From an uncultured delta proteobacterium (lineage in GTDB: Bacteria > Desulfobacterota > Binatia > Binatales > Binataceae), in the NCBI GenBank assembly GCA_963794325.1, contig CAWCDG010000005.1:363517-427516 (forward strand): a stretch of 64,000 nucleotides of DNA, in the 5' to 3' direction. The notes under the pieces are model-generated. The model was not told the origin of the DNA. It searched no databases and saw only the letters and a list, made by a program, of their open reading frames with translations. The translations under genes were made by a program, and so were the position numbers. Each line of letters opens with the position of its first letter. Within the stretch, counting starts at the first letter, position 1. Below, piece after piece: positions 1 through 52,905 of the stretch.

Positions 1-1580
1 TACTTCGAGTAAGTACCGTGACAGTCCTCGCATCGAACCTGGATGGGCCCACGCACCTCATCATATAGCTTGCCATTACCATGTGCGTCGCCAACGAAAT
101 GGCAGTCTGCGCATTGCATTCCGTATTCATTGTGGATGTCCTGCAGCTTGACCGCCCGCCGCCACTTGTACTTGTTGTCTGCGATCACGTGATCGTGCTT
201 GTCGAGCAGATTACCGTGGGTATCGTGCTTCCAGACGTATCTGAATAGCCAGCCATGACCATGGAAATCGGCGAGCTGCACCCGGCTGAGTTTGGGATTC
301 AGCTCAGAACTCGCCTGCAGGAACTTCCGATCCGACCATAGACCTTTGACGTTGGCGCCCTCGGGATTCGCCATCAGGTCAACCGCTTCTTCGTCCGCTC
401 CGGGACGCTTGGCCTTCTTTGGGTAGAAGAACTCACCGTCACTTTCATTGTCCCACCAGATGGTGCCGAAGTAACTGTTAGTGACGGTAGTCCCCGGATG
501 GACATGGCATACGACGCACTGGGACGAAGGAATTGAATTAGTCAGTTGATGCTTGATGGGATAGCCTGACACATCTTTAGGTATCGACTTGTCCGCCGAC
601 GCACTGTGGCCGGTATTTCCGAACTTTGCGAAGGTTCCCGAATGCTCCTTGTCGCTATCGTTCGCATAAACGACGTGGCAAGAGGTGCATCCGCTGGACC
701 TATAGTCGCCCGGATGATCGTTGGTGCCGAGAAACCACAGCGTTGGATCCATGAGACGGGTCTTGTGCAGGCTGAGAAACACAGGGTCCGTTCGCACCTT
801 GGTGCCCAGGCCTCGGACACTCAGGCGGTTTTCGCCACGCTCGAAGACACGAAGGACGTTGCCGGGCTGTGAGATCTCAAAGCGGGCGAGCGGATCCAGA
901 TAAGGCACGACTCCATGTTTGAGGGTGTCCTCCGCAGTGGGAGGGGGAAGTGTTTGCACGCGAGTAGGATTGCCGTTCTCCGAGTAGGACTCGCCGAATC
1001 GCCCGATTTTCTCAGGATAAACTCCGTTGTTGTATAGCGCCGCTTCCCACAGCATGGGACCGGTCGCCATCATGCTCTTGCGGACGTTCTCGACTTCGTC
1101 GATGTGGCATCCCTTACTGCCGCAACTCATACGCGCCGCGCGCAAATCGCCCGGATTCACAAATCGCACAAACTGCGGCGACTCGTTGTTTAACATCGAA
1201 TAGGAGCGCACCGGATTCTGGCCGCTCTTTGGCCAATCTTCGGGATAAAGCGGCTGAACGTGAGCAGTTTCTTTTTTTGACGCCTTAGGATCTCCGCCGT
1301 GACAATCGACACATCCTATGGGCAGTTTGTCGGGATGCATCTCCTCGATTCCTGCGTGACAACCGGCCGCTTTGCAGCCGACGCTTTTCGCATCCGCCTC
1401 GGCCTGCGTCTGATCGGAAATGTCCGGCGGAATTATTACTTTGGCGTCTGCAAGGCGGGCTGGTACTGAATGCTCCGGAAGCATCGCGCCAGGATTTGCA
1501 GGATCGTAAGCGCGATTGCATCCGAGATACACCATAGCTGTGCCGAGAATCGCGCATACCACGAGAGCTACGCGCAGCAT
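1..1580 (-). CDS. Large multiheme c-type cytochrome, probable lipoprotein (3' end runs off the window; absent from the ORF track)
   Basis: Manual translation from ATG 1580 (in-frame GTG at 1622 also possible): [25 protein letters not shown]..., open to position 1. Heme motifs CKAAGCH, CVDCH, CGSKGCH, CTSCH, CVVCH, CADCH, CEDCH. Hydrophobic N-terminus ends in a lipobox-like YLG-C. Confidence 0.9.
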
Positions 1581-1641
1581 GGTTCGTATCAACTGCGTAG
1601 GGTGGTCTCGGCTCGGTATCACTCTCGATCGCTCCGACTGC

Positions 1642-3636
1642 TCAATAGGTCAGCGTGAGATTCATGAAGCTCGAGAAGAGCGTCTTTGCCTGATAGATAT
1701 CGCGAAACCCATTGCCAGGAGCCAGGACCGAGAACCCGCCGGTCACGATGACGTTATCAATCAGCAGCGGTCGGTAACGGAACGCGACACTGTAGTCAAA
1801 ACCAACATTGTGACCCAGGTCATTTTGATGGAGTATCGATTCCAGAACGGCAACCTTGTCGAACTGGATGAAGCTCACGTTAAACATCGCCATAAGCTCA
1901 GGCGTGATCTTGGCGTCAACACCCGCGTTGTACTGCAAGACGCCGGGATTCACGAAGTTTGCCTGCCCCTGTAGTTTGTCACGCAAATCCGGAACCAGGC
2001 TCAAAGGATTGATCAAAGGAACTTGTGTGCCGGACAAGCCGATACCCACACGGTTGAAATAGGAGAATGGGACTCCGGAGAAATTCGGATCGTCCTGTAT
2101 CGTGTCGAATCCGCTCGCGGTATGCCCGTGTGGGTTGCCGCTCCCCGACGCATAGAAAAAGGAGCCCCTGAATCGGAGCCAATCGTGATCGTACGAGAGC
2201 TCGAGCGCTGCCATCTGCGCGTTGATATTGACCTTGTGGCCGGCGATGTCGTTGAAGCCGTCGTGGCCAACGGCTTCGTAGAACGCATGCGAGACGTTGA
2301 TTCGGCCTATGTGACCGTCACTGGTACAGCCGAAATAGGCCGTATCGACAGCGTGAGGTTTAACCGTTCCGATCAACGACGGACGCACCAGGAACCCATT
2401 GTCGTTGTATAGGATGTGTCCGTTGTCGTTGTTATAGGCGAAGTCTAACTGCATATTGTAGCCGTCAAACAGAAAATCCTGACGGGTGAAGTTGAACAGT
2501 CCTATATTCTGATCGCGCCCGACGAATAGCGTGTTCAGTCCGCTGTTAGTGTCCTTTTCGAGAGGCCTGAAGTATGCGAGGTTCCATTGATCGCGGTTCG
2601 ACTCGAAATTGCCGAACAGTCGAATGCCCGGATCGTTGTCAGAGAAGATGAAGCCACGGAAATCGCTGGTGAAACCCTGAACACCCGCAGTCACTGACAC
2701 GATGTCGTAGTAAGGGCTGAGGTCGGCGAGCTTGTAGGATACGAAGGCCTCCTGCACCGCGATGTGGCCGTTGGTGCGAGTGGTTCCATCGGCCGGATTG
2801 ACATTGACGATCCCTCTTTCGTTTGTGTCCAGGTAGTTGAGATTGAACACCGGGGTAAACTTGAATTCCCAATCAAGCGGCTTGAAGCCCGCATCGCCAT
2901 GGAACAGGTCGAACGAAAAAATCAGATTTTCCTGAACTGAAGTCTCGTCGCCGCTGCCAAAAAAGTTTGAACTATTCGGGCTCTGGGTGCTCACTCCGCT
3001 GGCCACCGGTAGCCGTTTGAACACCCAATCGACGTCATTGACTCCGGTCAGATCCAAAAACGTGTGGTCGCCAATAATCGGATAGTCGCCTTTCAGCACG
3101 TTCTGGTCGTAAGGATCCCACCAATGCCCCAACTGATACGGGTATTCGCCGGGGGTATTGAGCGTGTAGCGATCCCAGTCAGGAAATCCTATGCGCCATC
3201 GATCCGGTACCGGGATGAAATCCTGATCCGGAGTGGACTTAACCGCGGGCTCTAATACCGGTGGCGCAAAACCAAGCGGCGCCATCGGATTAGTCGCGCC
3301 GCTCCATTCGGCGGCCTGCGCCTTCAGCTTCTCGTCGGTCGAGCTGGCGCTGCTTTTGTTTGACGGGCTCGAATTGGACGCTGCCTCCGTCGACTGGTCG
3401 TCGTTGGCCGCGACTATTCGTGGAAAAAATATTGTGACAGAGACGAGGAGACCGACAACGCTCAGGCGGAGCAGGCTTCGAGAACCGATAGCGAATCGCG
3501 AGGTCGCGACCACCGCAGGAGCCCGACTGTTATTCAAAACAGGCGGAACATATTCCAGACGTTCGCATAGTGTCAACCATTGCGGAGGCCCGGCTTGACT
3601 CTGGGCAAGTCCTCTTGTGTATTGTAGCCGACTCAA
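1642..3636 (-). CDS. Outer-membrane beta-barrel protein (true start probably downstream of 3636)
   Basis: 664-aa ORF with a signal-like segment ([20 protein letters not shown]), many alternating aromatic/polar strands and a C-terminal MNLTLTY beta-signal. Directly upstream of the multiheme gene. Confidence 0.75.
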
Positions 3637-3702
3637 TCCGGGGATGATCTTTTCCCCAAGGTCGACTGCTCGCTATCGTTCGCTGGGGGCCTGGAGCAAC
3701 GA

Positions 3703-5277
3703 ATGGGTGACAAGCATCGAGCTGCAAAGGAGGGCGCCAGCGTGCGTCGAGGAGCGATGGTCCTGCTCGCCTTCGTTCTTAGCGCGATGCATCCTGTTGC
3801 CGTTTGCGCGCTCGAAACGTTGAACACAGCGCCTCTCACTGTCAGCGACGTCGAGAACATAATCTCGGCGGCCGTGACCCGTGCGGTGCACGACAGAGTG
3901 GCTGTGATTGTTGCCGTAAGCGATCGCGAGGGTAACCCGCTCGCCGTTTACGACATGACCAACGCTCCAACCGGCAGCAAGGACGCCGACGTCATCAACA
4001 GAATTGCGACGCTGCCCTGCTCTCCTCCCACCACAACGCCTTGCAATCCGACTCTGGCAGAGCGCACTGCGCTGGAAAAAGCCCGGACGGCGGCATTTCT
4101 GAGCAGCGACCAGGACGCGTTTTCGACCTTGACCGCTGCGACTCTGGTCGCAACTCACTTTCCGCTGCATATCTCCAACACTGCACAAGCGCCATTGTTT
4201 GGCCTGCAGTTTTCTCAACTCCCATGCAGCGACGTGACGCCGGCTAACGGCGCGACTGGGGCGCTCGGCGGTATCCCGCTGTACAAAAATAACGACATTG
4301 CCGGTGGAATCGGCGTCGACGGCGCAAGCAAGGGCGAAAACGAAAAGATCGCGTTGGCCGGCGATTCGAAATACAGCCCGAGCGCCGCAATCACCGCCAA
4401 CCAGATCTACCTCGGCGGATTTCAGCTGCCATGGACCAATCAGCCGCCGCCGAAGCGGCTCGCATTGATTCCATTCGCCAGCCTCCCCGGAGCCCCCAGT
4501 CCGAACTACCCGGACATAATCGCCACTCCACCGACGAGCTTCCCGCCCGCGGTGTTTGCAGGAGTCGCAGGCGAGATTCGCTTTCCAATCGTGGACAGCT
4601 CGAGGCCGGTTCCGGTGAAGCTCACGGCGGCGGACGTGACGACGATAATCACCCAGTCTGTTGCCATAGCCAAACAGACCCGCGCGGCGATTCGCCAACC
4701 TATAGGGGTGCCCGCGCGAATGCAGGTCGGCGTGACCGATCTCGATGGCTCAATCCTTGGCGTCTTTAGAACTAACGACGCAACCATGTTCAGCCTGGAT
4801 ATTGTTGTGCAGAAAGGTCGCTCAGTAACCGCATTCAGCGATCCCAATCAGCCTCTCGGTCATCAGTTGCGGCAATCGCTCGGAGTCGGCGCCAATCGCG
4901 AGATTGCCTTCACGACGCGAACGATTGGATTCCTGGCCCAGCCTTTCTATCCACCGGGCATTGACGGGACATCGCCGGGACCGCTACTCCACTTGCAGGG
5001 TAATCTGTTTAAGATGAAACCGACGGCGCCATGCATTCCCAATGGTGTTACCAACGGCGATGGCATCACCGCGTTTCCGGGTAGCACTCCGCTGTACAAG
5101 TCGGGGATCCTCGTCGGCGGGCTCGGTATCAGCGGCGACGGCGTCGACCAGGACGACTATGTGACAAACGCGGGCGCAGCAGGTTATCTCCCGGACCTAT
5201 CCATTAGGGCAGACCAGATTGTGTTTCGAGGCACCCCGCTTCCATTTTTTAAATTTCCGCGACAGCCGGGTTTATAG
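3703..5277 (+). CDS. Secreted heme-binding protein with two GlcG/HbpS-type domains
   Basis: Signal peptide. Two copies of the family motifs: AVSDREG...ALEKARTAAFLS...GGIPLYKNNDIAGGIGVDG and GVTDLDG...VQKGRSVTAFS...PGSTPLYKSGILVGGLGISGDGVDQD. Confidence 0.8.
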   Translation: MGDKHRAAKEGASVRRGAMVLLAFVLSAMHPVAVCALETLNTAPLTVSDVENIISAAVTRAVHDRVAVIVAVSDREGNPLAVYDMTNAPTGSKDADVINRIATLPCSPPTTTPCNPTLAERTALEKARTAAFLSSDQDAFSTLTAATLVATHFPLHISNTAQAPLFGLQFSQLPCSDVTPANGATGALGGIPLYKNNDIAGGIGVDGASKGENEKIALAGDSKYSPSAAITANQIYLGGFQLPWTNQPPPKRLALIPFASLPGAPSPNYPDIIATPPTSFPPAVFAGVAGEIRFPIVDSSRPVPVKLTAADVTTIITQSVAIAKQTRAAIRQPIGVPARMQVGVTDLDGSILGVFRTNDATMFSLDIVVQKGRSVTAFSDPNQPLGHQLRQSLGVGANREIAFTTRTIGFLAQPFYPPGIDGTSPGPLLHLQGNLFKMKPTAPCIPNGVTNGDGITAFPGSTPLYKSGILVGGLGISGDGVDQDDYVTNAGAAGYLPDLSIRADQIVFRGTPLPFFKFPRQPGL

Positions 5278-5322
5278 ATATCGGAGCCAAGGTGTAGAAG
5301 TGATGCCGAGAGGGAGGTCCAC

Positions 5323-5961
5323 ATGAACAAACCAACGAGTAACCTTGCCGCGTTCCTCATGATGGCGCTCGTGGCGGGCCTTTTCGCGTTGACGCCATCC
5401 GTAGTGCTGGCCGACGGACATGCGTACGTCGGTGAAAGCAAATGCGAGGACTGCCACGATTCGCAGCACGAAAAACTCGACGTCATCGGCCCCGACGGCA
5501 CTAAGTCCGACCCGGTCACTGTCTGGATGAAGGACCCTCACCATAAGGCATTCGATGCGTTGACTGGGGATTGGGGAAAACAGGCGGCCAAAAAAGCGAG
5601 CGTCGCCGATCCACAAGCTGACGGATCGATGTGCCTGACTTGTCATGCCACCGGCACGGGCGGCAACAATCCACCTGATCCTAGTGAAGGAGTGTCATGC
5701 GAGGCATGTCACGGTGCAGCGGCTGACTATGTGGCAAGAGACAAGCACGGCGAGATCGGCAACGATCCGGCGAAAATGGCGGCGGCGGTAGCGCTGGGTA
5801 TGATCGATATGCGCAAGATTGACGTGCGCGAGAATAATTGCCGCGGCTGTCACGTGGTCGATACTTCCAAGCGGCCCTGCTATCGCGCAAGCGAGAAGCC
5901 CTTCGACGTTCACAATGACAAGAAGTTCCGGCATTGGAGAGATAACATCCCGCCAATCTGA
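5323..5961 (+). CDS. Periplasmic tetraheme cytochrome c (c554-like family)
   Basis: GGAGG RBS, signal peptide, YVGESKCEDCH, CLTCH, EGVSCEACHG, CRGCH. Confidence 0.88.
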   Translation: MNKPTSNLAAFLMMALVAGLFALTPSVVLADGHAYVGESKCEDCHDSQHEKLDVIGPDGTKSDPVTVWMKDPHHKAFDALTGDWGKQAAKKASVADPQADGSMCLTCHATGTGGNNPPDPSEGVSCEACHGAAADYVARDKHGEIGNDPAKMAAAVALGMIDMRKIDVRENNCRGCHVVDTSKRPCYRASEKPFDVHNDKKFRHWRDNIPPI

Positions 5962-6032
5962 TCTGATCCTGGGTTGAGCCGCTAACTGCATCATGAGGGG
6001 CCGGCGGGCTAGCCGACTCCTTATGTCGTCGA

Positions 6033-7500
6033 TCAGAATCCTTTTCGAGTCATGCGGATACCTATCGATTTCATGAATGCGGTCGGCAACTCCGCATTTA
6101 GCATCGCGAACACGAAGTCGTTCTCGATTTCAATCGGCTCGGTCAGCCTTACGACGCTCGGATTGGCTTCTTGGCGCTCCGCGGAGGGTGTCTGAGGCGC
6201 TCGCTCTTCGGTCTTGCGGCTTCTGAACGATGTTGTCAGCCACGCGAATAAACCACGCCGCGGCGGTTGTTGAGCAGACTGGTCTGTCGTTTCCTGCACC
6301 TGCTGGCGCGATGATTCCGCCATTGGAGCAAGGACGACTTTGCCAGGTTTGATCTCGGTCACTTGACTCCACGGATACACAGTAATCTGCGCTCTCTGCT
6401 GCAGGTCGCTGATTTTTACGGCGTTCTCAGGCGAGACCCGCGAACTGAGTGCCGCGTCGCGGAAGGAGTAGGAGACGGTATTGCGCAGCGCAGGATCCGC
6501 GAGCATCTGTGTCACCTCGGCGCCGGAGTTTCCCCCTCCAACGACCAGGACCCGCTTGTCCTTGAACTCCTCGGGCTCGATCAGGCCGTAGAAAACGCGA
6601 TCGGCCGTTTCGCCATCAACATTCAGCTTGCGTGGAGTGCCACGCACGCCGATTGCCAGGACTACATAGCGCGCTTTGAAGCTTTTGCCGGGACGCGTTG
6701 CGATTTCAAACAATTCGTCGGCCCGACTTATGGAAATGACCTCCTCGCGCTCATTGATCTGGAGCTGCATCGTACGCAGCATCTCTTCCCATTTTTCGAC
6801 CAGCTCTTCCTTGGTGCGATCGCCCTCCAAATAGAAGGAGCCGTATTCATCCAGCTCGATTGGACTTGCCTGAACAAACTTGCCGCGCGGAAAGGTGCGG
6901 ATCGTGCTTGCCGCAGTATCTTTCTCCAGCGCCAGGTAGTTCAGCCCATTTGACTTGGCCGACCATGCCGCGCCGATTCCCGTCGGACCGCATCCAACTA
7001 TCGCGACGTCGTAAACCTCGGGCTCGACCGCTCGCTTCTCATGTCGAATCGCATTGGCAATAGCCACAACCACCTGGCGGCCCGAACGCATCACAAGATT
7101 GATCGAGGACGTTCGTCCGCTAGCTTCGCCGGCGACATAGACGCGTGGGACGTTGCTCTCATAAGTGTCGTCGAGCACGGGAATCTCCGGCGTTCGCTGT
7201 GGACCGGAGTCCGAAACCAGCCGGCGACGTGATTCCGGCGGCAGATAGCGGAGGTAGCCAACTCCGATCAAGGTCATAGTCACCAGTGCGAGGATCGCGA
7301 GCCACCACGGACGCAACGTGACCCTTCGAAGCGCGATGCTCGGAGATCCATTGTGCAAGCCGTGCAACGAAATCGTGTAGGCCGCAAGCCGCAACTCCGG
7401 CGGTTGATGGGGCCGGGTCGTAGGCGCCTTGGACGGGAAATCCTTGATCAGTTTGCCGCCGCGATAGTAGGTGTGGAACGCGTGGCAATCAGCACAGGCA
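6033..7500 (-). CDS. FAD/NAD(P)-dependent oxidoreductase (thioredoxin-reductase/YpdA-like) preceded by a TM helix and a heme motif; probably the C-terminal half of a fusion with 7501-8580
   Basis: VAIVGCGPTG, VVLAIGVRGTPRKL, VLVVGGGNSG motifs; TM helix PWWLAILALVTMTLIGVGYL. The frame stays open upstream of the track start (7394) and encodes NACADCHAFH (CADCH at 7482-7496). Confidence 0.8.
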
Positions 7501-8580
7501 TTAAGCGTCTTCTCCCATGGATAACTCCAGTACCTCGAGCTGACCAGCTTCAGCTCGACTCGAGCTCAGGATGCCAAGGGGGTCTGTCCATGACGCTACT
7601 TGCCCCGAGGGTGTTCCTGCCTCGTGCGCGTGACAACTGAAGCATTTCCCGATCTCTCTGGTGCTCGAATCCCGCGGCTTCTCACTCTCCTCGATATGCA
7701 GATGACACTCGGCACACTCCGCCTTTAGATGACCCGCGGAATGAGGTGTGAAAGTCGCGTTGATAGGACGGAACACTGCTGACTCAACAAACGGGATTGT
7801 CGGAGGCTCGGGCGTAGCGCTGCCGGCGGCGCTCGCGAGCTTCAAGTCTTCGTCCTGCCAACTCGAATGGCAGGTGCTTGCGGTGCATCCGGTGGTTACT
7901 ATCGCAAATTCTTCGGGCTTTTCGCGTGACGGAGCGCTCACCAGATGACACGACCGGCAAGCGAGATGCTGTTCCGTGTGATCGAGCCCGCCGGCCAGCT
8001 CCGCAGCGGCCTTCTCGGCAGCTTGCTTGCGCGACGCTGATCGCATCCTTTGCGCGTCGGTTCTCGCTTCCCGCAAGTGTTTGAGAGTGTCTTCGAGATG
8101 CTGCTTATGGTTGAAGTCCTTGGCAAAGTTTTGGATCGACTTCCATTGAACATGCAGGCTGTGACCGTGTGCGCCGACCCCAGCTATCGAGTCATGCGCA
8201 TGACACGCGCTGCAACTAGTTCCCGAAGTGGCGACAAAATCGACCTTGCGGCCCTTGTGATCCGTATGGCAAGAAAGACATGCCAGTTGATCGTTGAAAC
8301 CAGCCAGATGCTTTCCGGGGTCCAGCCCAACGTCCTTGTCGTCGAGATTGACGTTCAAGTGGTCGGAGTTATGAATAATGTTACCGTGACAATCGACACA
8401 TCCGGTGCTGGCTAACGCGACGCCGCTCCACGGCTGGTGGCATACGGCGCAGTTTCCACCGAAGGGCTCGTGACCTTCAAGGACAGGGCCCGGCGAATAA
8501 CTTCGATGGAATGAGAGCAGGATGGCCAGCACCGCCAGTGTGACTATGCCGGCGACTGTCAGTTGGCTACGGCGCTTCAT
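7501..8580 (-). CDS. Membrane-anchored multiheme cytochrome c (cytochrome c3-like), N-terminal half of the probable fusion
   Basis: ATG 8580 overlaps the upstream stop (ATGA). N-terminal TM, SPGP motif, CAVCH, CVDCH, CLSCH, CSACH, CRSCH, CTASTCH, CAECH, CFSCH. Confidence 0.85.
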   Translation of the reverse strand: MKRRSQLTVAGIVTLAVLAILLSFHRSYSPGPVLEGHEPFGGNCAVCHQPWSGVALASTGCVDCHGNIIHNSDHLNVNLDDKDVGLDPGKHLAGFNDQLACLSCHTDHKGRKVDFVATSGTSCSACHAHDSIAGVGAHGHSLHVQWKSIQNFAKDFNHKQHLEDTLKHLREARTDAQRMRSASRKQAAEKAAAELAGGLDHTEQHLACRSCHLVSAPSREKPEEFAIVTTGCTASTCHSSWQDEDLKLASAAGSATPEPPTIPFVESAVFRPINATFTPHSAGHLKAECAECHLHIEESEKPRDSSTREIGKCFSCHAHEAGTPSGQVASWTDPLGILSSSRAEAGQLEVLELSMGEDA

Positions 8581-9512
8581 ATTCCGCCGAAGTAAAGAAC
8601 CCCTACCACGTGAAATATCAGAAGTGCGAATGTCAGCACCGATAAGACTATGTGAAGATCCAGCCACCCAGTGCTGAGATGAATATTGAAAGAGTTATGA
8701 TCGAGATTTACCTTGCGAGCCGCGAGGGCTAGAAGCTCGCGATAGGTCTTCTCATCGCCGGATTCTGCAATCCTTGCGGCCGCCGCCGCGCAGACTTGCT
8801 GACCGGGATCGATACCCTTTATCGTCGCCATCAAGAGAGTCCATCTCGACGCGGATCTATCGCTGAGAAGTATAGGCTTGATGTGGTCGATGTATGCCTT
8901 GGTTAGCTGCTCGCTATGCCCGAGAATTTTCTCCTCTGCCTCGCGATAGACCGCGCTGACCTTGGAATCGACATCCTCGAGCCGCACCTGGTGCTCGGCG
9001 AGCCGCGTCATCGCGTGCGGAAGTTTGTCCTGCAGTATCGCGCCGAAGATTCCGCTGATGAATAGCAACAGCACGAGTGTTGCGAGCGCAGCCTCCAAAG
9101 GACTCATCGCGGTCGTGGTGATGTGCCACGACAAGGGCAGCAACGCGAGCATCCCGAGCGTGAGATGAAACGCGCGCCATGTTTCGAGCCGATCTAGCTG
9201 GACCAGCCGATGTTGAATTGAGGCTGGAAAGATCTTCCCAGTGAATTGCAGCACGCGGATCGAGAACCAGATGTTGCGCTTGCGGACGCTGTACCATGCG
9301 ATCGCGATAAAGCTTGCCAGCGCGATAGAGCCCGACCAGTATTCTCCAATCTCACGCCCGAAGGTTGAAGTCGCCGCGTTCAGGCCTGCCACCGCGATCA
9401 GACAAATGGTCAGCCAGAGCCAGATGCGGATCGGGATCGCGCGACCTCGGCGATCGCGAATATTCAAGGTTGGTCGGTTTGCGGCGGCGGCTCGAGCCTC
9501 TCGAGTAGCCAT
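8577..9512 (-). CDS. Polytopic membrane protein with four TM histidines (putative heme b / ferric-reductase-like)
   Basis: Several TM helices; His pairs WRAFHLTLG...LSWHIT and WLDLHIVLS...LIFHVVG. Confidence 0.65.
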   Translation of the reverse strand: MATREARAAAANRPTLNIRDRRGRAIPIRIWLWLTICLIAVAGLNAATSTFGREIGEYWSGSIALASFIAIAWYSVRKRNIWFSIRVLQFTGKIFPASIQHRLVQLDRLETWRAFHLTLGMLALLPLSWHITTTAMSPLEAALATLVLLLFISGIFGAILQDKLPHAMTRLAEHQVRLEDVDSKVSAVYREAEEKILGHSEQLTKAYIDHIKPILLSDRSASRWTLLMATIKGIDPGQQVCAAAAARIAESGDEKTYRELLALAARKVNLDHNSFNIHLSTGWLDLHIVLSVLTFALLIFHVVGVLYFGGI

Positions 9513-9515
9513 CGG

Positions 9516-11190
9516 CTAGTCGTTCGAGCCCATGGCTTTTCTGACGCGATCGGGCCCGGCGATTACCACGCCGGTCGCGGTCGGGAAGAGATCGGAAGGC
9601 TTGATTCTCATCGCGGAGCCCGTCGGGCACGCATGAACACATCCCATGAACGGAAGCCCGTCGCACAGATCGCACTTTATGGGATAGGCAGCCGGGATGT
9701 GGGCCGCGCTCTTTGACAAAGACTCGGTGCTCGATTCGGACTGCTCTTTGGATGCCTGATTGCGGCCAAGAATCCGTTGCCAGAGGCTGCGCTCGATCCG
9801 CTCGTGATCGCCGCGCTCGTGACTCGCAAAGATCCTGCTCCATAGGCCTTGTTCGACCGCGTGTGAAGGAACCGGATAAGGCCGGAAGAATTCTTTGCCG
9901 AGAGTCTCGGCTTTTCGATCCTGCGCCGCATCGAACTTACCGGTCTCGATCATCGCGATGTTGTCGTAGGGGCAGGCGATCGCGCAATTGCCGCATCCGA
10001 TGCACATGTCGTATTGAAAGTAGATCTCGCCTTCCGGCCTTCGCTTGACCGCGCCGGTCGGGCAACTGTTCATGCATTTGGGATCGTCGCAATGGCGGCA
10101 CGCGGCCGGTATCAGGTATTTGCCCAGCTGGATCCCGGTCCTAATCAGGCGGCTGGTGCCATGAAGCGACTCGCACGCGGTTACGCAATTATCGCACTTG
10201 ACGCATAGGTCCAGATCCATCACCAGCAGCGCATCGGCCTGAATGACGCCAAACTGTCCGCTGTCTTTCAGAATCTCCGATAGCTCCGGCGTCAACTGTT
10301 CCTCAGCCGCGAGGCGGCGTTCTATGGTCGAACGCACTTGCGCTTCGGCCGAAGGAAATTGCTTGATGAGAGCCGCGACGTCCTCGCCGAGAATCTTGAT
10401 CACCTCGCACTTACCCGCCGTTAAGACGCTCGCATTGCGAACGCCGCCACCGCCGATCAGCGACATCTCGCCGAAATACTCGCCGGCCCGCCGATATGCG
10501 AGCACCCGTTGAGTGCCATCTTTGGCTTGGCGGACAACTTGGACGTAGCCGTCGCGGACGATGTACAGACTGTCGCCGACCTCACCCTGCTTGACCAGCA
10601 CGATTCCGCGTTGGTCGTAGCGTTTGATCTCGCAATCCGCGAGCAGGCGATCGATGAACTCGTCCTTAACGCCCTTGAAGAGCTCGAGTTCATTGACCAT
10701 CACGCGAATTGCGCGTTCGCGAAATCGGGCGGAGAGCAAGGCGCGTGCCTCGTCATTCGTTTCGACAAATTTGAGGCAATGCCGCGGGAATGTAGAAGAT
10801 CTCGGCACCGTCCTGCGCAGCGACTATATCCAGCGTGCGTGGAAGTCCGCCCAACGCGCCCATTTCGCCGTAGAACTCGCCGGCGACACGCGCGGCAACC
10901 TTGGTCCTGACCGCGCCATCGATTTCGAAGAGGTCCACGCCGCCCTTCAGAATGAAGCAGAGATCGAGCTCATATTCGCCCTTACTGCAGATGAGCTCGC
11001 CCCGGCGAAAATTCGCGAGGCGCATCGCAGCCTCGGAATCAAAGCCTTTCAGGAATGCGTCGCGCTGTTCGTCAGAAAAATGTTTGAAGAGATCGAATCC
11101 GGAAAGCTCGGACCACAATTCGTTCCCGGGCCTTCTAATCGGTACTCCAGCAAAACTCACAGGGCCACCGGCTACCGTGCCGCTGCTCAT
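9516..11190 (-). CDS. Protein with two cyclic-nucleotide-binding domains and a 4x[4Fe-4S] (DmsB/NrfC-type) domain; one frameshift near 10787 joins track ORFs 10753-11190 and 9516-10808
   Basis: GEFYGEMGALGGLPRT and GEYFGEMSLIGGGGVRNASV cassettes; CVKCDNCVTAC, CRHCDDPKCMNSCP, CIGCGNCAIACP, KCDLC...CVHACP. Removing one C from ATTCCCGCGG gives continuous ...EIFYIPRHCLKFV... Confidence 0.85.
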
Positions 11191-37675: not shown

Positions 37676-39562
37676 TTGAATCCAACTCGCGCCAAACTTT
37701 CAAGCTTAGTCGAACTCCTTCGATTGCGCGCGCTCGAACAGCCAGCGCACCGGATTTACACCTACCTTACCGACGGAGAAACTGAAGGAGCGCATCTGAC
37801 CTATGAGGCTTTAGACCGGCAGGCACGGGCTATTGCTGCGTTGCTCCAGAGCTACAACGCAAGCGGAGAGCGGGCACTGTTACTCTATCCAGCAGGTCTC
37901 GAATTCATCTCCGCTTTTTTCGGATGCCTATACGCCGGGGTTATTGCCGTTCCGCTGCCGCCGCCGAATACGGCTCAGCCACAGCGTGCGCTCTCACGGT
38001 TTCGCGCAATCGCGAACGACGCTCAACCGACGGTGGTTCTGACTACATCGTCGATACTCTCGAAGATCGAGGGTGTGTTCACTCAAGCTCCCGGGCTGCG
38101 CACGCTGCGTTGGATTGCGACCGACAAGATACTAGGCAACGCCGCCGATGAATGGCGCGACCCTGCGGCGACTCCCGGCACGCTGGCTTTGATCCAATAC
38201 ACCTCGGGCTCCACTGCCATACCGAGGGGCGTGATGGTCAGTCATGGAAACCTGCTCGAAAACTCCGCTCACATCGACCAGGCATTTGAGATTTTGCCGG
38301 ACGACGTTTCGGTCACATGGTTGCCGGTGTTCCACGATATGGGACTCACCAATGGAATTATCCAACCCATGTATGGAGGGCGTGAGTGCATTCTGATGCC
38401 GCCGCAGTCCTTTCTTCAGCGGCCGGTGCGATGGCTGCAGGCAGTTTCAAAATATCACGCCACTATCAGTGGAGGCCCTAACTTCGCCTACGAAATGTGC
38501 GCTCGCAAGGTTACTCCCGAGCAGCTAAGTGCGCTCGACCTTAGCAGTTGGAAGTTGGCCTACGATGGCGCCGAGCCCGTCCGCGCGGACACGCTGAAGC
38601 GGTTTGCTACGGCCTTCGCTCCTTGCGGATTCCGTCCAAAGTTTTTCTATCCGTGTTACGGACTGGCCGAGGCCACGCTGATCGTTTCGGGAGGCTTTGT
38701 TAAGGACGAGCCTATCCTGCGCACGATGCAGGTGTCGGAGCTCGAACACAATCACAACACTGTCGTCCAGGTTTACGACCATCGGGTGAACGTCCGCACT
38801 CTGGTTGGCAGCGGTCACGCGGTAGCGGACACAAAAATCGTTATCGTCGATCCTCAGTCGTTGACAGCTTGCGCCTCCGATGAGGTTGGCGAAATCTGGG
38901 TCTCGGCCCCAAGCGTGGCCCAGGGCTATTGGAACCGGCCTGAGGAAACCGATCTCACCTTCCACGCCTACCTGGCAGATAGTGGCGAAGGTCCGTTTCT
39001 GCGCACCGGAGATTTGGGATTCCTCGGCGACGGAGAGTTGTTCGTCACCGGACGCTTGAAGGATCTGATTATCATCGGTGGCCGCAACCTCTATCCGCAG
39101 GAAATTGAACTGACTGTGCAGCAGAGCCATCCCGCGGTGCGGCCGGCTTGTTGCGCGGCGTTCTCGGTCGAGGTCGCGGATGAAGAACGGCTCATCGTCG
39201 CCGCCGAATTGGAACCTCGCTACGCGTCGAATCTGTGTTCGGCTAATGGAAATGGGAACGGCAACGGGCACGGGAACGGCAATGGAAACGGGAACGGCAA
39301 CGGAAATGGGAACGGCAATGGACACCGCAACGGAAATGGCAACGGCAACGGAACTGCGCATCCGAATCACAACGGACGGCTGCCGCTCGACGTCGATGCG
39401 TTAGTGCGTGCCATCCGGCGCGCGGTGGCCGAGGAGCATGACGTGAGAGTGCATGCCGTCTTGCTGCTGCGAGCCGGCAGCATGCCAAAGACTTCCAGCG
39501 GCAAGCTCGAGCGCCGCGCATGCCAAGCTGGTTTTCTGGACGGCACGCTCGCAAGCCTCTGA
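37676..39562 (+). CDS. Fatty acyl-AMP ligase (FAAL)
   Basis: QYTSGST, WLPVFHDMGL, GGPNFAY, CYGLAEATL, FAAL-type insertion before LVGSG, FLRTGDLG, KTSSGKL. Confidence 0.95.
   Translation: MNPTRAKLSSLVELLRLRALEQPAHRIYTYLTDGETEGAHLTYEALDRQARAIAALLQSYNASGERALLLYPAGLEFISAFFGCLYAGVIAVPLPPPNTAQPQRALSRFRAIANDAQPTVVLTTSSILSKIEGVFTQAPGLRTLRWIATDKILGNAADEWRDPAATPGTLALIQYTSGSTAIPRGVMVSHGNLLENSAHIDQAFEILPDDVSVTWLPVFHDMGLTNGIIQPMYGGRECILMPPQSFLQRPVRWLQAVSKYHATISGGPNFAYEMCARKVTPEQLSALDLSSWKLAYDGAEPVRADTLKRFATAFAPCGFRPKFFYPCYGLAEATLIVSGGFVKDEPILRTMQVSELEHNHNTVVQVYDHRVNVRTLVGSGHAVADTKIVIVDPQSLTACASDEVGEIWVSAPSVAQGYWNRPEETDLTFHAYLADSGEGPFLRTGDLGFLGDGELFVTGRLKDLIIIGGRNLYPQEIELTVQQSHPAVRPACCAAFSVEVADEERLIVAAELEPRYASNLCSANGNGNGNGHGNGNGNGNGNGNGNGNGHRNGNGNGNGTAHPNHNGRLPLDVDALVRAIRRAVAEEHDVRVHAVLLLRAGSMPKTSSGKLERRACQAGFLDGTLASL
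39245..39352 (+). repeat. In-frame hexamer repeat encoding a 36-aa Asn-Gly tract
   Basis: 18 units of AAYGGN-type hexamers, two of them variant (HG, HR). Confidence 0.95.
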
Positions 39563-39571
39563 GGTGTAGCG

Positions 39572-42500
39572 ATGGCCGGGAATCCTATCACGGGTGAAAT
39601 AGCGAACACGTCGATCGCGACGGCAAGTCCCCAATTGGACACTTATAGCGCCGAGGTCATCGAAAAATGGCTCGTCGATAAGCTCTCCGAGCTGCTCGGG
39701 GTCGCTCCGGAAGAAATCGACGTGCGGGAACCGTTCGCCAGCTACGGAATGGGCTCGACCGAGGCAGTCAGCCTCTCGGGCGAACTCGGCGATTGGCTCG
39801 GACAAAAAGTCGCCGCTGATTTGGCGTACGAGTTTCCAACTATCGAAACGCTGGCTCGGCATTTGAGCGGCTCGACCGATGAGTCGCGACCCGACGCTCG
39901 AAACGACCTGGCCTCGGAGTCGATCGCGATCATCGGAATCGGCTGTCGGTTTCCCGGCAGCATCGGTCCTCAGGAGTTCTGGCAGTCTATCCGCGACGGG
40001 ATTGACGCAATCACGGAAGTGCCGGCCGACCGCTTCAATCTCGACGAGGTTTACGATTCGGATCCAACTGTCCCGGGCAAAATAAGCACGCGATGGGGCG
40101 GCTTTATCGATCAGGTGGATCAGTTCGATCCGCAGTTCTTCGGCATCTCGCCCCGCGAAGCTGCACGGATGGATCCGCAGCAACGCCTGTTGCTCGAAGT
40201 AACCTGGGAAGCACTGGAAGACGCGGGGCAGGCGCCCGAGACACTTACCGGAAGCCAGACCGGCGTCTTCGTAGGAATCTCGAACAACGATTACGGCCGG
40301 ACCCAGTTCGGCGATCTCAGCCGCATCGACGCGTACGCGGGAACCGGCAACGCACTTAGCATCGCCGCCAACCGGATTTCGTACCTGCTGGATTTTCGCG
40401 GACCCAGCATCGCGATCGACACTGCATGCTCGTCGTCGCTGGTCTCAGTCCATCTCGCATGCACCAGTCTGCGCAACGGTGAATCGACCCTCGCGCTAGC
40501 TGGCGGCGTGAATCTGATCCTGTCGCCTGCCATCACGATGAATTTTACCAAGGCCGGCGTGATGGCGCCTGACGGGCGCTGCAAGACCTTCGACGCGGGC
40601 GCCAACGGCTACGTCCGCAGCGAGGGCGCAGGACTCGTCGTGCTCAAGCCTCTCAGCCGCGCGCTGGCCGACGGCGATACTATTTACGCCGTCATCCGTG
40701 GCAGCGCCGTGAACCAGGACGGTCGCAGCAACGGCCTGATGGCGCCGAATCCGCTCGCGCAGGAAGCCGTCTTGCGCGAAGCATATCGCGCAGCCGCTGT
40801 CTCAGCCGGCGACGTTCAATACGTCGAGGCGCATGGCACCGGTACTCTGCTCGGCGATCCGATCGAGGCGCGAGCGCTCGGCCGGGTGCTGGCCGACGGC
40901 CGTGCATCGGGCAATTTTTGCGCGATCGGTTCGGTCAAGACCAATATCGGGCACTGCGAAGCGGCGGCTGGCGTCGCCGGACTGATAAAGGTCGCGCTCG
41001 CGCTTAAGCATGCTGAGATTCCGGCGAGCCTGCACTTCCAGGAGCCCAATCCTCATATACCTTTCGACCAACTCCCGATTCGCGTGCAGACCCGGCCGGG
41101 TCCGTGGTCTGAAGAGAGCGGTCCACCGCTGGCTGGCGTCAGTTCATTCGGATTCGGCGGCACCAATGCTCACGTGGTCATGCAGCAGGCCCCCGAGTCG
41201 CGAAGTAAGAATCGCGAAGCGTCCGCGATCAAGTCCTGTTACTTTCTACCGCTCTCGGCGCGCAGTCCCGAGGCTCTGCAGGCCGTCGCGCGATCCTACC
41301 TGGAATTTCTGGCGAGCTCTGAGTTGTCGCTGCACGACATCTGCTACAGCGCGAGCGCGCGCCGCGGTCATCACGACTATCGCTTGAGTGTAACCGGCGA
41401 TGCGTCGAATCAACTTATCGACGGGCTCGAGGCTTTCCTCAAAGGAGAGACTCGCGCCGGTCTTTCGTCCGGCCGCAAAGCTCTCGGCGCGCACAAAAAA
41501 CTGGCTTTTGTTTTTTCCGGGCAAGGCTCGCAATGGTTCGGCATGGGCCGCACGCTCCTGCACGATGAACCCGTCTTTCGCGAGATGATCGAGCGATGCG
41601 CGCTGGCGCTGCGGCCGCATACCGACTGGTCCTTGATCGCGGAACTGGCCGCCACCGATCCAACCGAATCGCGGCTCAACGAAGTCGACGTAATCCAGCC
41701 TGCGCTGTTCGCAGTTCAGGTCGCGCTCGCAAGTCTGTGGCGCTCATGGGGTATCGAACCCGATGCGGTCGTTGGCCACAGCATGGGCGAAGTCGCGGCT
41801 GCGTACGTCGCCGGCGCAGTCAGCCTCGAAGACGCGGCGCTGATAATTTGCACCCGCAGCAAGCTGGTCAGGCGTACCGTCGGGCAAGGCGCGATGGCGT
41901 CGGTGGAGCTTTCCATCGAAGACGCTCGCCGCGCGATCGCAGGCTACGAAGATCGCGTTTCAATCGCGGTCAGCACCAGTCCCACGTCCACGGTCCTGTC
42001 GGGCGACCCGACAGCGCTCGCGGAGATACTCGAACAGCTTCAGGCCCGCGACGTCTTCTGCCGGATGGTGAAGGTGGACTTCGCCTCGCACAGTCCGCAG
42101 ATGGATCCATTGCGCGCCGAGTTGATGCGCGCGCTGGAAGAGGTGCAGCCGCATCTCGCGTCGATCCCGATTTATTCGACCGTGCTCGACTCGGTCGCCG
42201 ATGGCTCGGAGTTCGATGCGCTCTACTGGGCGCGCAATCTCAGGGAGCCGGTGCTTTTTTCCGCGTCGGTGCAGCGCCTGCTCGAAGATGGCCATGAAAC
42301 CTTCGTCGAGATCAGCGCGCATCCCATTCTGCTCAGCGGAATCCAGCAAGGGATTCATCACGCGGGCAAAGAAGGCGCGGTGCTCGCCTCGATCCGGCGC
42401 GAGGAAGACGAGCATACTGCGATGCTGCGGTCGCTGGGTCTGCTCTATTGTTCGGGATATGCAATCGACTGGAATCGCATCTACCCCGAGCGAGGTGCAA

Positions 42501-51400: not shown

Positions 51401-52905
51401 ACAAAACCGGCGACCTGGCGCGTCACTTGCCCGACGGTAACATTGAATACATCGGACGTACCGATCATCAGGTGAAGATCCGCGGATTCAGAATCGAACT
51501 CGGAGAAATCGAGGCGGCTCTCGCGCGACATACTTCGGTGCGTCAAGCGATCGTGTCGGCGCATCAGGACGTCCACGGAGAGAAGCGGCTGGTTGCCTAC
51601 GTCGTCGGCGACCCCGAGCATCCGCCGACCGCCAATGACCTGCGCAGTTTTCTGAAGGACAAGGTTCCCGAATACATGGTGCCTTCGGTCTTCCTGTTGC
51701 TTGAGACGCTTCCTACTATGCCCAACGGAAAAGTGGATCGGCGTGCGCTGCCAAAGCCAGACCAAACGCGACCCGAGATGGGTAGAACATTTGTGGGGCC
51801 GCGAGACGAGCTGGAACTACAACTGACCGGTCTCTGGGAAGAAGTCCTGGGTATCCGGCCGATCGGGGTAACCGACAATTTCTTCGAGCTCGGCGGGCAT
51901 TCTCTGCTGGCGGTGCGCTTGTTTGCGCTAATCGACAAGCGGATGGGTAAGAGACTTCCGCTAGCGGCTCTTTTTCGAGGAGCAACCATCGAAGGTCTGG
52001 CTGAGATCGTGCGTAAGAACTCTTTGTCAGTGACACCGTCATCGCTGGTGCCTATCCAGCCTGACGGCAGCAAACGACCGCTCTTCCTCGTGCATCCCGC
52101 TGGTGGACATGTGTTTCCGTTCATTGGGTTGGCGCAATGTCTAGGTCTCGATCAGCCCTGTTACGGGTTGCAAGCCCGGGGCGTGGAAAATGGGCAGGAA
52201 CCACACACCCGGATCGAGGACATGGCCGCTTGTTACGTTGAAGCTATTCAGTCCGTGCAGTCGGAAGGTCCCTATCTGTTAGGCGGCTGGTCGATGGGCG
52301 GTGAGATAGCATTCGAGATGGCTCAGCAGCTGCACGCGCGGGGACAGAGAGTGGCGTTGCTGGCTCTACTCGACGCTCGCATTCCCTCCACCGCTGAGAA
52401 TGTTACCGACGAAGATTTTGAAGCAATGTTGATGGCCGATGTCGTCCGCTATTTCGGTCTTTCGGCGGATTTCAGTGCGTCCCTGGCGTTTCTTCCGCAA
52501 GATGAACTCCTGGCGCGAGTGCTCGAGCAGGGGAAAAGAGCCGGCTTGATACCCGCTGATATCGAAGCCGCGCAGGCGCATCGGCTGATAGAACTCTGCA
52601 AGTCGGATTTTCGAGCTAGTCGGAACTACGTACTCCGTCGCTATCCCGGTCGAGTGACTCTGTTCAAGGCTAGCGAGAATCTTTCGGGAAATCCCATTGA
52701 CCCGACCCTGGGGTGGAGTGATTGGGCCGAAGGAGGGGTAGATGTGCAGATCGTGCCAGGCAATCACGCGACCATGGTGTACAAACCCAATGTCGAGACT
52801 CTAGCGGAAAAGCTGGCGACATGCATCGAGCAGGTACAGCTGGATCTCAAATGCCAGGGCAATAGGATCGAGCTATCGAACGAATCGATGAAGGACGCCC
52901 GATGA
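45487..52905 (+). CDS. Bimodular NRPS: C-A-T-C-A-T-TE
   Basis: HHIVIDFWS and HHIVSDGWS; two [22 protein letters not shown] domains; two GGHSLL T domains; TE GWSMGG. Confidence 0.97.

Follow-up and report, generated by a model that had tools for sequence, protein, structure and literature searches.

What do the seven genes do that open a 64,000-nucleotide stretch of DNA (the window, G000:C5:363517-427516) in a genome of 4.45 Mb in 10 contigs, and do they act together? The source is an uncultured member of the Binatia with close relatives labelled Candidatus Binataceae or Binatus, and the host is a soil bacterium. The genes lie at window positions 1-11190, and an initial annotation, made from the DNA letters alone, read them as a cyclic-nucleotide-gated system that moves electrons from NAD(P)H across the whole cell envelope. 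We conclude that the region is probably the Binatia version of an electron-transfer system resembling the putative ptd operon, with a core of three genes, here called A, B and C, and an outer module of four, g4, g3, g2 and g1. What is established is which genes the cluster holds, with their motifs, fusions, synteny and co-occurrence, and, as predictions, their folds and an interface between A and B.

The core genes A, B and C

Nine frames (g1 to g9) were recognized in the cluster by open reading frame (ORF) listing, Pfam and NCBIfam, and they become seven genes once two 1-nt frameshifts are read through. Gene A joins g9 (10753-11190, cNMP_binding) to g8 (9516-10808, cNMP_binding and Fer4 families) and gene C joins g6 (7501-8667, cytochrome c3-like) to g5 (6033-7394, Pyr_redox_3, YpdA-like), all four frames being on the minus strand. 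With these joins the seven adjacent genes of the initial annotation are borne out as g1, g2, g3, g4, C, B and A. They carry about 23 c-haem sites, well beyond chance, because no CxxCH was found in the 124 ORFs of at least 100 aa (28,558 aa) across the rest of the window. The haem counts given initially (7 or more, 4 and 9) were reproduced for the window part of g1 (5 CxxCH and 2 CxxxxCH) and for g4 (4 CxxCH); the nine motifs of the third cytochrome stand when C is read across its frameshift and do not stand for the g6 frame alone, which has eight. The four [4Fe-4S] motifs, two cNMP domains, FAD/NAD(P) motifs and four-histidine membrane protein are all present as well (motif script, Pfam, alignment).

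Protein A (9516-11190, minus strand, ~555 aa) consists of two cyclic nucleoside monophosphate (cNMP)-binding domains and a four-cluster [4Fe-4S] domain. It has no signal peptide and no transmembrane (TM) segment, as is expected of a cytoplasmic protein. Both cNMP domains were recognized by Pfam (3.8e-18 in the g8 part, 1.1e-09 in the g9 part), with PF00027 scores of 65.7 and 38.6 bits vs a cut-off of 27.5, and the Gly-Glu ... Arg of the phosphate-binding cassette is kept, FGE...R and YGE...PR being readable in the translations. Four [4Fe-4S]-type cysteine groups, at g8 residues 202, 237, 269 and 379, are matched by Pfam Fer4 families, and their cysteines are invariant in 11 aligned sequences. 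The best NCBIfam matches of this domain were DsrO (3.2e-19) and DmsB (7.1e-17), all scores lying under the curated cut-offs (e.g. DsrO 69.3 vs 200). The spacing of the four cysteine groups is equal to that of DmsB/NrfC/DsrO subunits; unlike these, A has no Tat signal, its Fe-S domain is fused to two cNMP domains, and its predicted partner is a 5-TM protein with two histidine pairs. The usual partners of such subunits had been noted as missing from the cluster, and indeed neither a molybdoenzyme nor NrfD was seen among the nine ORFs scanned with Pfam and NCBIfam. By the cNMP domain membership of A, electron flow may be gated by a cyclic nucleotide. The source genome encodes 15 class III nucleotidyl cyclase domains above the Pfam cut-off, mostly in frames of 900-1200 aa, a number that points to unusually rich cyclic-nucleotide signalling.

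Protein B (g7, 8577-9512, minus strand) is a membrane protein of 311 aa for which 5 TM helices are predicted, TM3 and TM5 each bearing one Hx13H pair. In an alignment of 44 sequences H116 and H130 do not vary, and the conservation of H287 and H301 is at least 90%. Its AlphaFold2 model (predicted local distance difference test, pLDDT, 84.6; predicted template modelling score, pTM, 0.75) matched no PDB fold at E<=0.001 (Foldseek), nor was a useful PDB relative found by sequence. Further structural searches with B (VIA second look and VIA wide search) returned only generic helical bundles, with best Z scores of 8.9 and 9.1, and the designed two-haem bundle 7ah0 came out within this noise (Z 8.2). 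Fainter leads were obtained from families. Among the Atlas neighbours of B there is a 'Ferric reductase like transmembrane component' (at 0.92), the B family gave sub-threshold Pfam matches to DUF4079 (20/44) and DUF4405 (8/44), and PF01794, for which the window's own B had no Pfam match, appeared below threshold in three of eight Planctomycetota homologues (best 26.1 bits vs a cut-off of 28). These leads to di-haem cytochrome b and ferric-reductase families are weak and mutually consistent, making B a candidate di-haem b transmembrane wire, putatively a distant relative of the ferric reductases. The family is not small, as the B profile retrieved 989 proteins from 1.84 billion representatives at E<=0.001, of which 161 pass 1e-10 and 24 pass 1e-30.

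Protein C (6033-8580, minus strand) is a single gene for a nine-haem cytochrome c and a flavoprotein. It is laid out as a TM anchor, the cytochrome domain, a second TM helix and a FAD/NAD(P) domain like those of thioredoxin reductase (TrxR) and YpdA, and by its predicted topology the haem domain would be periplasmic and the flavoprotein domain cytoplasmic. The g6 frame holds 7 CxxCH and 1 CxxxxCH, and the ninth motif lies past the frameshift; nine motifs were counted in all 26 fused C ORFs of more than 700 aa. Three cytochrome c assembly proteins are encoded in the source genome. The flavoprotein domain (Pyr_redox_3, 4.9e-34) has two GxGxxG motifs and a single cysteine, with no CxxC, and its nearest PDB sequences are YpdA/Bdr (1.7e-18), TrxR and TrxR-type ferredoxin-NADP reductases. 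Since the fusion puts both in one polypeptide, the NAD(P)H site is tied to the periplasmic haems.

The flavoprotein domain (6033-7394) also looks circularly permuted. A T..N.P.VYVAGE motif and helix, which normally end TrxR-type proteins, follow directly after the TM helix, and C ends where the genome's TrxB continues toward this motif. The permutation was judged by eye, and BLASTP did not align the segments. Residues 65-112 of the domain gave a weak Pfam match to the C-terminal end of Amino_oxidase (E 0.0019).

The three genes are tightly packed. B starts 3 nt past the stop codon of A, and the ATG of C at 8580 overlaps the stop codon of B as ATGA. The order A-B-C is kept in 59 Binatia-type loci, with the g8/g7 and g7/g6 pairs each found in 55 of the 59 and g6/g5 in 53; loci L060-L080, which hold ordinary small ferredoxin-like proteins, were left out of these synteny counts. 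In addition, four of 150 listed B-profile matches (P0248, P0249, P0250 and P0360; 771-871 aa) are fusions of A to B, with cNMP, Fer4 and B parts in one protein.

Regarding individual cases, P0248 (814 aa, on the contig of L040) is an A-B fusion by Pfam, and in G233:C9 and G301:C1 frames of 824-832 aa surround the B match, from the length of which alone a fusion is deduced. Some of these fusions may be artefacts of long-read metagenome-assembled genomes; P0250 and P0360 come from other sources. B-cytochrome fusions were suspected in L104 and L105 and turned out, by six-frame search, to be separate genes in a GC-rich genome.

A multimer prediction that included the Fe-S protein and the membrane protein had been proposed at the outset as a check, and for these two it returned an interface scoring above the controls. 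The complex of A (residues 185-430) with B reached an ipSAE of 0.67 vs 0.10 for the best of three controls, a mark attained by 58 of 80 solved complexes and by 2 of 110 mismatched pairs; as the A-B prediction used custom alignments, this calibration applies to it approximately. At least 80% of the contacts were common to the runs and the partner pLDDT was at least 71. The predicted interface sets two Fe-S motifs of A, I and IV (residues 199-215 and 385-398), on the cytoplasmic loops of B, at residues 78-89, 104-113, 161-178 and 277-284, beside the cytoplasm-side histidines H116 and H287. The Fe-S domain of A is thus predicted to dock on the cytoplasmic face of B.

The same arrangement recurs outside the Binatia. 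Among 301 Planctomycetota genomes 24 were positive with the B profile, and in the 12 loci that were fetched B adjoins a 9-10-haem cytochrome in all 12 and A adjoins B in ten. No TrxR-like domain was found in these 12 loci. In four of them (L099-L102) a protein of FAD_binding_6, NAD_binding_1 and Fer2 domains, of the ferredoxin-NADP reductase (FNR) type, is encoded beside A, B and the decahaem cytochrome. Two unrelated NAD(P)H flavoproteins accordingly accompany the same A-B-cytochrome set, which is the strongest argument for NAD(P)H as the cytoplasmic partner. The inner path put forward initially, from NAD(P)H and flavin through Fe-S clusters and haem b to c-haems, is therefore well supported by comparison (fusions, operon, four-histidine motif, A-B interface and replacement of the flavoprotein), and a synteny search across phyla, also suggested then, revealed that the gene set co-occurs in Binatia and Planctomycetota.

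FHA domains are present in two of these loci, on the FNR-type flavoprotein in L099 and L100 and on the cNMP-Fe-S protein in L099 (L099:5899-7515, L099:7550-9565 and L100:12699-14327). Their presence suggests an added, phospho-threonine-dependent layer of control.

The outer module

The gene g1 (1..1622, ORF 3-1622, minus strand) is cut by the start of the window, within which the N-terminal 540 aa of a multihaem cytochrome are encoded. The upstream contig was retrieved, as the initial annotation had advised, and g1 could be completed. It extends 2,134 nt beyond the window start (G000:C5:361383-365138), and its product of 1251 aa has 10 haem motifs and ends in an LVIVD beta-propeller (PF08309 repeats, 1e-24). 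A signal peptide with a lipobox-like cysteine was seen in seven of eight g1 homologues inspected. No PDB sequence relative was found at E<=1, there was no Pfam match to MtrC/MtrF domains, and a short match to ExtM scored 73.5 bits vs a cut-off of 800. Nothing relevant on LVIVD multihaem proteins was found in the literature searched, which was mostly without subscription journals. Downstream of g1, on the same strand and just outside the window, lies a gene for a 228-aa FecR-domain protein (PF04773, 3.1e-09; L083:161-847).

The neighbouring g2 (1642-3636, minus strand) belongs to no Pfam or NCBIfam family, and its start is probably near 3483, since relatives align only from residue ~72-85. The outer-membrane barrel assigned to it at first sight was recovered by modelling: in an AlphaFold2 model (pLDDT 74.2) the modelled residues ~134-612 are all-beta and make a barrel of ~18 strands. 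Among PDB folds the model comes closest to the alginate exporter AlgE (E 3e-18, TMt 0.62-0.71), with porins of 16-18 strands next; by sequence no useful PDB relative was found. The family is very large and unnamed, with 7,993 relatives among 8,000 scored candidates in several phyla (labels include Binatia, Acidobacteria, Rokubacteria and NC10), some with an added CarboxypepD_reg domain. The first ~133 model residues (g2 52 to ~185) are of low confidence and include a highly conserved stretch of ~80 residues. In this part, at g2 residues ~108-185 (window 3080-3330), there are invariant R, W, P, G and K-G-D positions, yet pLDDT is below 50. The conserved pre-barrel segment may be a plug or a partner-binding segment.

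On the plus strand, g3 (3703-5277) matches the HbpS-like family PF03928 in 3 stretches (1.3e-25) and has an N-terminal hydrophobic segment; by sequence it is a secreted protein with two HbpS/GlcG-like (DUF336) domains. Weak PDB sequence matches were to the PduO C-terminal domain and EfgA. The description of g3 as a double haem-binding protein holds as far as the family label goes and not as to haem binding itself, which such membership does not demonstrate. It is followed by g4 (5323-5961, plus strand), with 4 CxxCH, a signal-like N-terminus and a match to PF13435 (2e-10), a putative periplasmic tetrahaem cytochrome like c554.

The initial annotation had compared the barrel and the cytochromes with porin-cytochrome pairs of the MtrAB type. 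The likeness to MtrCAB and Pcc complexes lies in a gene for a multihaem lipoprotein beside one for an outer-membrane barrel, with periplasmic multihaem cytochromes nearby. In MtrCAB, a large 26-strand MtrB barrel sheathes a decahaem cytochrome, whereas the g2 model has only ~18 strands, AlgE is its best match and MtrB is absent among the 50 fold matches shown; an MtrB-type barrel was accordingly rejected for g2. Neither do the cytochromes belong to the DmsE/MtrA family, as TIGR03508 scored 18.2 bits with g4 and 20.5 bits with g6 vs a cut-off of 192.2. Because the barrel is ~18-stranded and AlgE-like and not a sheath of the MtrB type, a conduit across the envelope is something that we can only infer.

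Elsewhere in the window, at 37676-52905, there is a hybrid polyketide synthase (PKS)-nonribosomal peptide synthetase (NRPS) cluster with an acyl-AMP ligase (628 aa), a KS-AT-DH-KR-ACP PKS (1971 aa) and a two-module NRPS with thioesterase (2472 aa).

Relationship to ptd and other known systems

The initial annotation knew of no characterized system of this composition. The composition itself has already been described: a putative operon named ptdABCDEFG was reported in a 2024 preprint from marine Alphaproteobacteria, Gammaproteobacteria, Nitrospirales and Planctomycetes (10.1101/2023.11.21.568154). In the part of the preprint available to us, its products are listed as a pentahaem cytochrome with a beta-sandwich, a porin, a flavohaemoprotein-like FAD/NAD(P) oxidoreductase, a tetrahaem cytochrome, a cNMP-binding 4Fe-4S protein, a ferric-reductase-like membrane protein and a decahaem cytochrome (10.1101/2023.11.21.568154). 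There the operon is likened to porin-cytochrome complexes and its function is said to remain 'completely unknown', so that the earlier statement stands as regards function (10.1101/2023.11.21.568154). No later work on ptd was found in the literature searched, again mostly without subscription journals, and a term search of the Binatota paper PMC8262859 gave no 'multiheme', 'extracellular electron' or 'cyclic nucleotide'.

The window proteins were set against ptd by its published description, not by its authors' sequences, and the correspondences below hold for what that description covers. PtdE is a cNMP-binding protein with 4Fe-4S clusters, and A has both. The ferric-reductase-like PtdF is next to PtdE as B lies 3 nt after A, the ferric-reductase label of B being sub-threshold. 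The decahaem PtdG comes after PtdF; the cytochrome of C likewise follows B but has 9 motifs. PtdD is a periplasmic tetrahaem cytochrome, as is, putatively, the c554-like g4. The other parts differ more. PtdC is a separate protein of the FNR/flavohaemoprotein kind, whereas the flavoprotein of the window is TrxR/YpdA-like and fused to the cytochrome via a TM helix; PtdA is a pentahaem cytochrome having its beta-sandwich at the C-terminal end, whereas g1 encodes a decahaem lipoprotein with an LVIVD propeller. Relative to ptd, the window cluster has the double HbpS-like protein g3 in addition, and the ptd hosts are marine or saline whereas the host of the window is a soil bacterium.

A bridge between the two is provided by the Planctomycetota locus L101, which fits ptd in content and order and in which A, B, g4 and the cytochrome part of C all have homologues. 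Its A-profile match has an E-value of 1.1e-42 and is a cNMP-Fe-S protein by Pfam. The B profile matches the gene after the A-like gene in L099-L102 (E 1e-10 to 4e-16), the cytochrome domain of C is homologous to the decahaem cytochromes of L097-L108, and g4 is weakly homologous (21-31% identity) to tetra- or pentahaem genes in six of the 12 Planctomycetota loci. With the g2 profile no match was obtained in L101. It is because L101 shows ptd content and order together with homologous A, B, cytochrome and tetrahaem genes that we regard the window cluster as a variant of ptd.

Two better known kinds of system share parts of this plan. Tmc and Hmc complexes of sulfate reducers span the inner membrane with a multihaem cytochrome c on the periplasmic side, a cytochrome b in the membrane and an Fe-S protein on the cytoplasmic side. 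A-B-C resembles them in plan, but the protein families differ (HmcA, HmcB and TmcA matches were far under the cut-offs) and A-B-C adds an NAD(P)H flavoprotein and cNMP domains. In NADPH oxidases (NOX) and further systems with a ferric-reductase domain, among them MsrQ and its flavin reductase Fre, NAD(P)H gives electrons to flavin, from which two bis-His haems b pass them to an acceptor on the outer side. The logic proposed for A-B-C is the same (NAD(P)H, flavin, stacked haems b, outer acceptor), and the histidine pairs of B, on TM3 and TM5 with a spacing of ~13 residues, are NOX-like. Unlike NOX, a four-cluster Fe-S protein would be placed between flavin and haem b, and the flavin domain is on a separate polypeptide that also bears nine c-haems.

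Two frameshifts in the assembly

Gene A is broken by one extra C in a CCC run near 10785, where g9 and g8 overlap, as seen in alignment to homologues, and C by one extra base near 7517, which is why it was listed as two ORFs, 7501-8667 and 6033-7394. Most of 120 listed g8 homologues are ~500-580 aa long, cover 97-100% of g8 and begin with a second cNMP domain. For C, the intact 881-aa ORF of L001, a locus 87% identical, aligns to the window in two frames by tblastn with a switch at ~7521, and the ninth haem motif, CADCH, is found just beyond the switch in the frame of g5. Within the 59 Binatia-type loci, g6 and g5 are in a single open frame in 46 of 53 related loci and g9 and g8 in 51 of 54; applied as a control to pairs of separate genes, the method gave 0/55 for B-C and 3/55 for A-B.

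Logan contigs from public soil runs have exactly one letter fewer at each site. At 10785 the extra base is missing from contig X1, which is 99.7% identical to the window with 5 other differences in 1,582 nt and has a depth of 13.5; a second contig, X2, is clipped at 10789 and gives no information there. At 7517 it is missing from X2 and X3, the sole two bridging contigs, each ~96% identical to the window. As both sites are one letter shorter in short-read contigs, the real genes are A at 9516-11190, B at 8577-9512 and C at 6033-8580, and the frameshifts most probably arose as consensus errors in assembly.

Co-occurrence of the core and the outer module

The census comprised 151 Binataceae and 301 Planctomycetota genomes and used queries of unequal sensitivity, 'B-negative' meaning not found with the query used. 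In Binataceae 52 genomes were positive for B, 18 each for g2 and g1, and 15 for g3. Any of g1, g2 or g3 was detected in 19 genomes, every one of them B-positive, and in none of the 99 B-negative ones; no statistic is offered for these counts because kin are not independent. In genera of mixed presence the patterns coincide (g150, 3 and 3; g168, 5 and 5; the window's genus, 4 plus one with a divergent B). The two modules co-occur on different contigs in G246, G208 and G252, all well assembled, and in six further assemblies, four of which have at least 250 contigs. In some cases g3 lies with the core and in others with g2-g1.

A genome of a second Binatia family, G038, had at first been taken as an instance of the g3-g2-g1 triad without a core. 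Searching with the B profile turned up a B-like gene of divergent sequence there; it and a 10-haem cytochrome lie immediately upstream of g3-g2-g1, all on one strand, and no A was seen at the locus. Because this B had been missed at first, 'B-negative' from a single-protein query means only that B was not found.

Among the Planctomycetota g1-like genes were detected in 43 of the 301 genomes, that is in 18/24 B-positive genomes vs 25/277 others, and in 14 of the 18 genomes having both, g1 and B are on one contig within 17 kb. Of the 12 loci chosen by B, six contain g1. We sampled eight of the 25 genomes with g1 and no detected B: g2 adjoins g1 in all eight and g3 in seven, and a B-like gene was present in two, an A-like gene in four and a C-like cytochrome in five. 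The association of core and outer module in three lineages is strong, and it is not obligatory. Frames with 13-18 CxxCH were also seen near g3-g2-g1 in L111, L113, L114, L115 and L118, the order being B, A, cytochrome.

Proposed mechanism and alternative explanations

Cofactor binding, the outward flow of electrons, their control by a cyclic nucleotide and their passage across the outer membrane are all parts of a scheme deduced from these comparisons. The cytoplasmic flavoprotein domain of C would oxidize NAD(P)H, with reduction of FAD, and pass electrons to the four [4Fe-4S] clusters of A, docked on the cytoplasmic face of B. Through two bis-His haems b in B the electrons would traverse the inner membrane and reach the nine-haem part of C in the periplasm, held next to B by the two TM helices of C. 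A small-molecule signal would act on this flow by way of the two cNMP-binding domains in A. The tetrahaem protein g4 would be a likely periplasmic shuttle, and the decahaem-propeller lipoprotein g1, with the g2 barrel and g3, the likely terminal station at the outer membrane.

A number of observations weigh against this scheme. The source assembly has two frameshifts inside the operon, and at 7517 the intact form is known only from contigs of a ~96%-identical strain. No solved fold is significantly matched by B, its ferric-reductase family match being sub-threshold. In eight of the 12 Planctomycetota loci no flavoprotein was recognized by the core among the selected neighbour ORFs scanned with Pfam. 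Domains of the cNMP type elsewhere bind ligands other than cyclic nucleotides, as in CooA, NtcA and CprK. A barrel of ~18 strands may not be wide enough to enclose a multihaem cytochrome. With the queries used, 33 of the 52 B-positive Binataceae genomes are without g1, g2 and g3; g1 occurs without detected B in 25 Planctomycetota genomes, and in three of the eight loci sampled from these no A, B or C is present within the fetched 15-20 kb.

If the frameshifts were genuine, A and C would be pseudogenes of an operon decaying in this organism. Two 1-nt insertions no more than 3.3 kb apart in one operon would fit such decay, as would the ~96% identity of the contigs that are intact at 7517, but we consider it very improbable given the 99.7%-identical contig of depth 13.5 without the extra base at 10785, frames that are open and conserved on both sides of the shifts (71-78% identity to L001 over the whole gene), and split forms that among relatives fall mostly within few assembly series, as assembly error predicts. 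With intact genes, the region might still hold two unrelated neighbours, A-B-C being a self-contained inner-membrane redox device and g3-g2-g1 an independent outer unit, e.g. a surface redox enzyme or an adhesin with a channel. The genomes in which either module was found alone, the three sampled loci with g3-g2-g1 and no core gene in the fetched stretch, the size and spread over many phyla of the g2 family and the separate transcription units of the modules within the window all speak for such independence. It is nevertheless quite unlikely in our estimate, since B is present in all 19 Binataceae genomes bearing g1, g2 or g3, including three well-assembled ones with unlinked modules, adjacency recurs in the second Binatia family and in Planctomycetota, and two of the eight 'B-negative' loci held a B-like gene and five a C-like cytochrome.

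The remaining alternatives keep the genes together and change the direction or the source of the electrons. The sequences do not fix the direction, and multihaem-plus-barrel systems serve electron uptake in iron oxidizers (MtoAB, PioAB), so that with the same wiring g1 might oxidize Fe(II), reduced humics or another donor outside the cell or in the periplasm, and C, B and A pass the electrons to NAD(P)+ or another cytoplasmic acceptor. Such an inward flow, from the positive to the negative side and onto low-potential NAD(P)+, would be uphill, no energy-coupling subunit was found in the operon by Pfam or NCBIfam, and TrxR- and FNR-type flavoproteins and ferredoxin-like Fe-S proteins suit NAD(P)H oxidation at least equally; we hold it to be improbable. 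We give no better prospects to a quinone-reactive B, which with C would form a quinol:cytochrome c oxidoreductase (or the reverse) like CbcL or ImcH of Geobacter, leaving A and the flavoprotein to regulation or sensing. In extracellular electron transfer quinol is usually oxidized by pairs of di-haem b and multihaem c proteins, and L103 and L107 of the Planctomycetota, as well as G038, have B and the cytochrome with no A nearby. A side role for A and the flavoprotein is harder to reconcile with the adjacency of A to B in ten of 12 Planctomycetota loci and nearly all Binatia loci, the existence of A-B fusions, the predicted docking of the Fe-S cluster region against the cytoplasmic face of B, and the occurrence of two non-homologous flavoproteins, one within C and the other encoded nearby. 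An NAD(P)H-fed, ptd-like system therefore remains the reading that we prefer.

Significance of the Binatia cluster

In comparison with what the available part of the preprint describes for ptd, what appears to be new here is the fusion of a TrxR-like flavoprotein, the decahaem-LVIVD lipoprotein and its barrel resembling AlgE, and the HbpS-like protein. The natural fusions and the exchange of one flavoprotein for another supply a testable wiring diagram for a ptd-like system, and models of how it crosses the outer membrane must account for a barrel unlike MtrB.

A more far-reaching proposal, tentative and rather unlikely as a whole, is that the seven genes form one 'electron valve', an analogue of NADPH oxidase with an Fe-S wire and ~23 c-haems. 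On a cyclic-nucleotide signal, it would let an aerobic methylotroph of soil shed excess electrons from NAD(P)H to an extracellular acceptor via a new outer-membrane station, by a quinone-independent route common to Binatia, Planctomycetota and the marine ptd hosts.

The system is in any case not a curiosity of one genome, with 989 representative clusters of the B family at E<=0.001. The linked set recurs in Binatia and Planctomycetota and, according to the part of the preprint available, also in marine Alpha- and Gammaproteobacteria and Nitrospirales (10.1101/2023.11.21.568154). If the proposed function is true, these organisms would possess a quinone-independent, NAD(P)H-fed and signal-regulated exit for electrons from the cytoplasm, built from a combination of parts not found in any studied respiratory or extracellular electron-transfer system.

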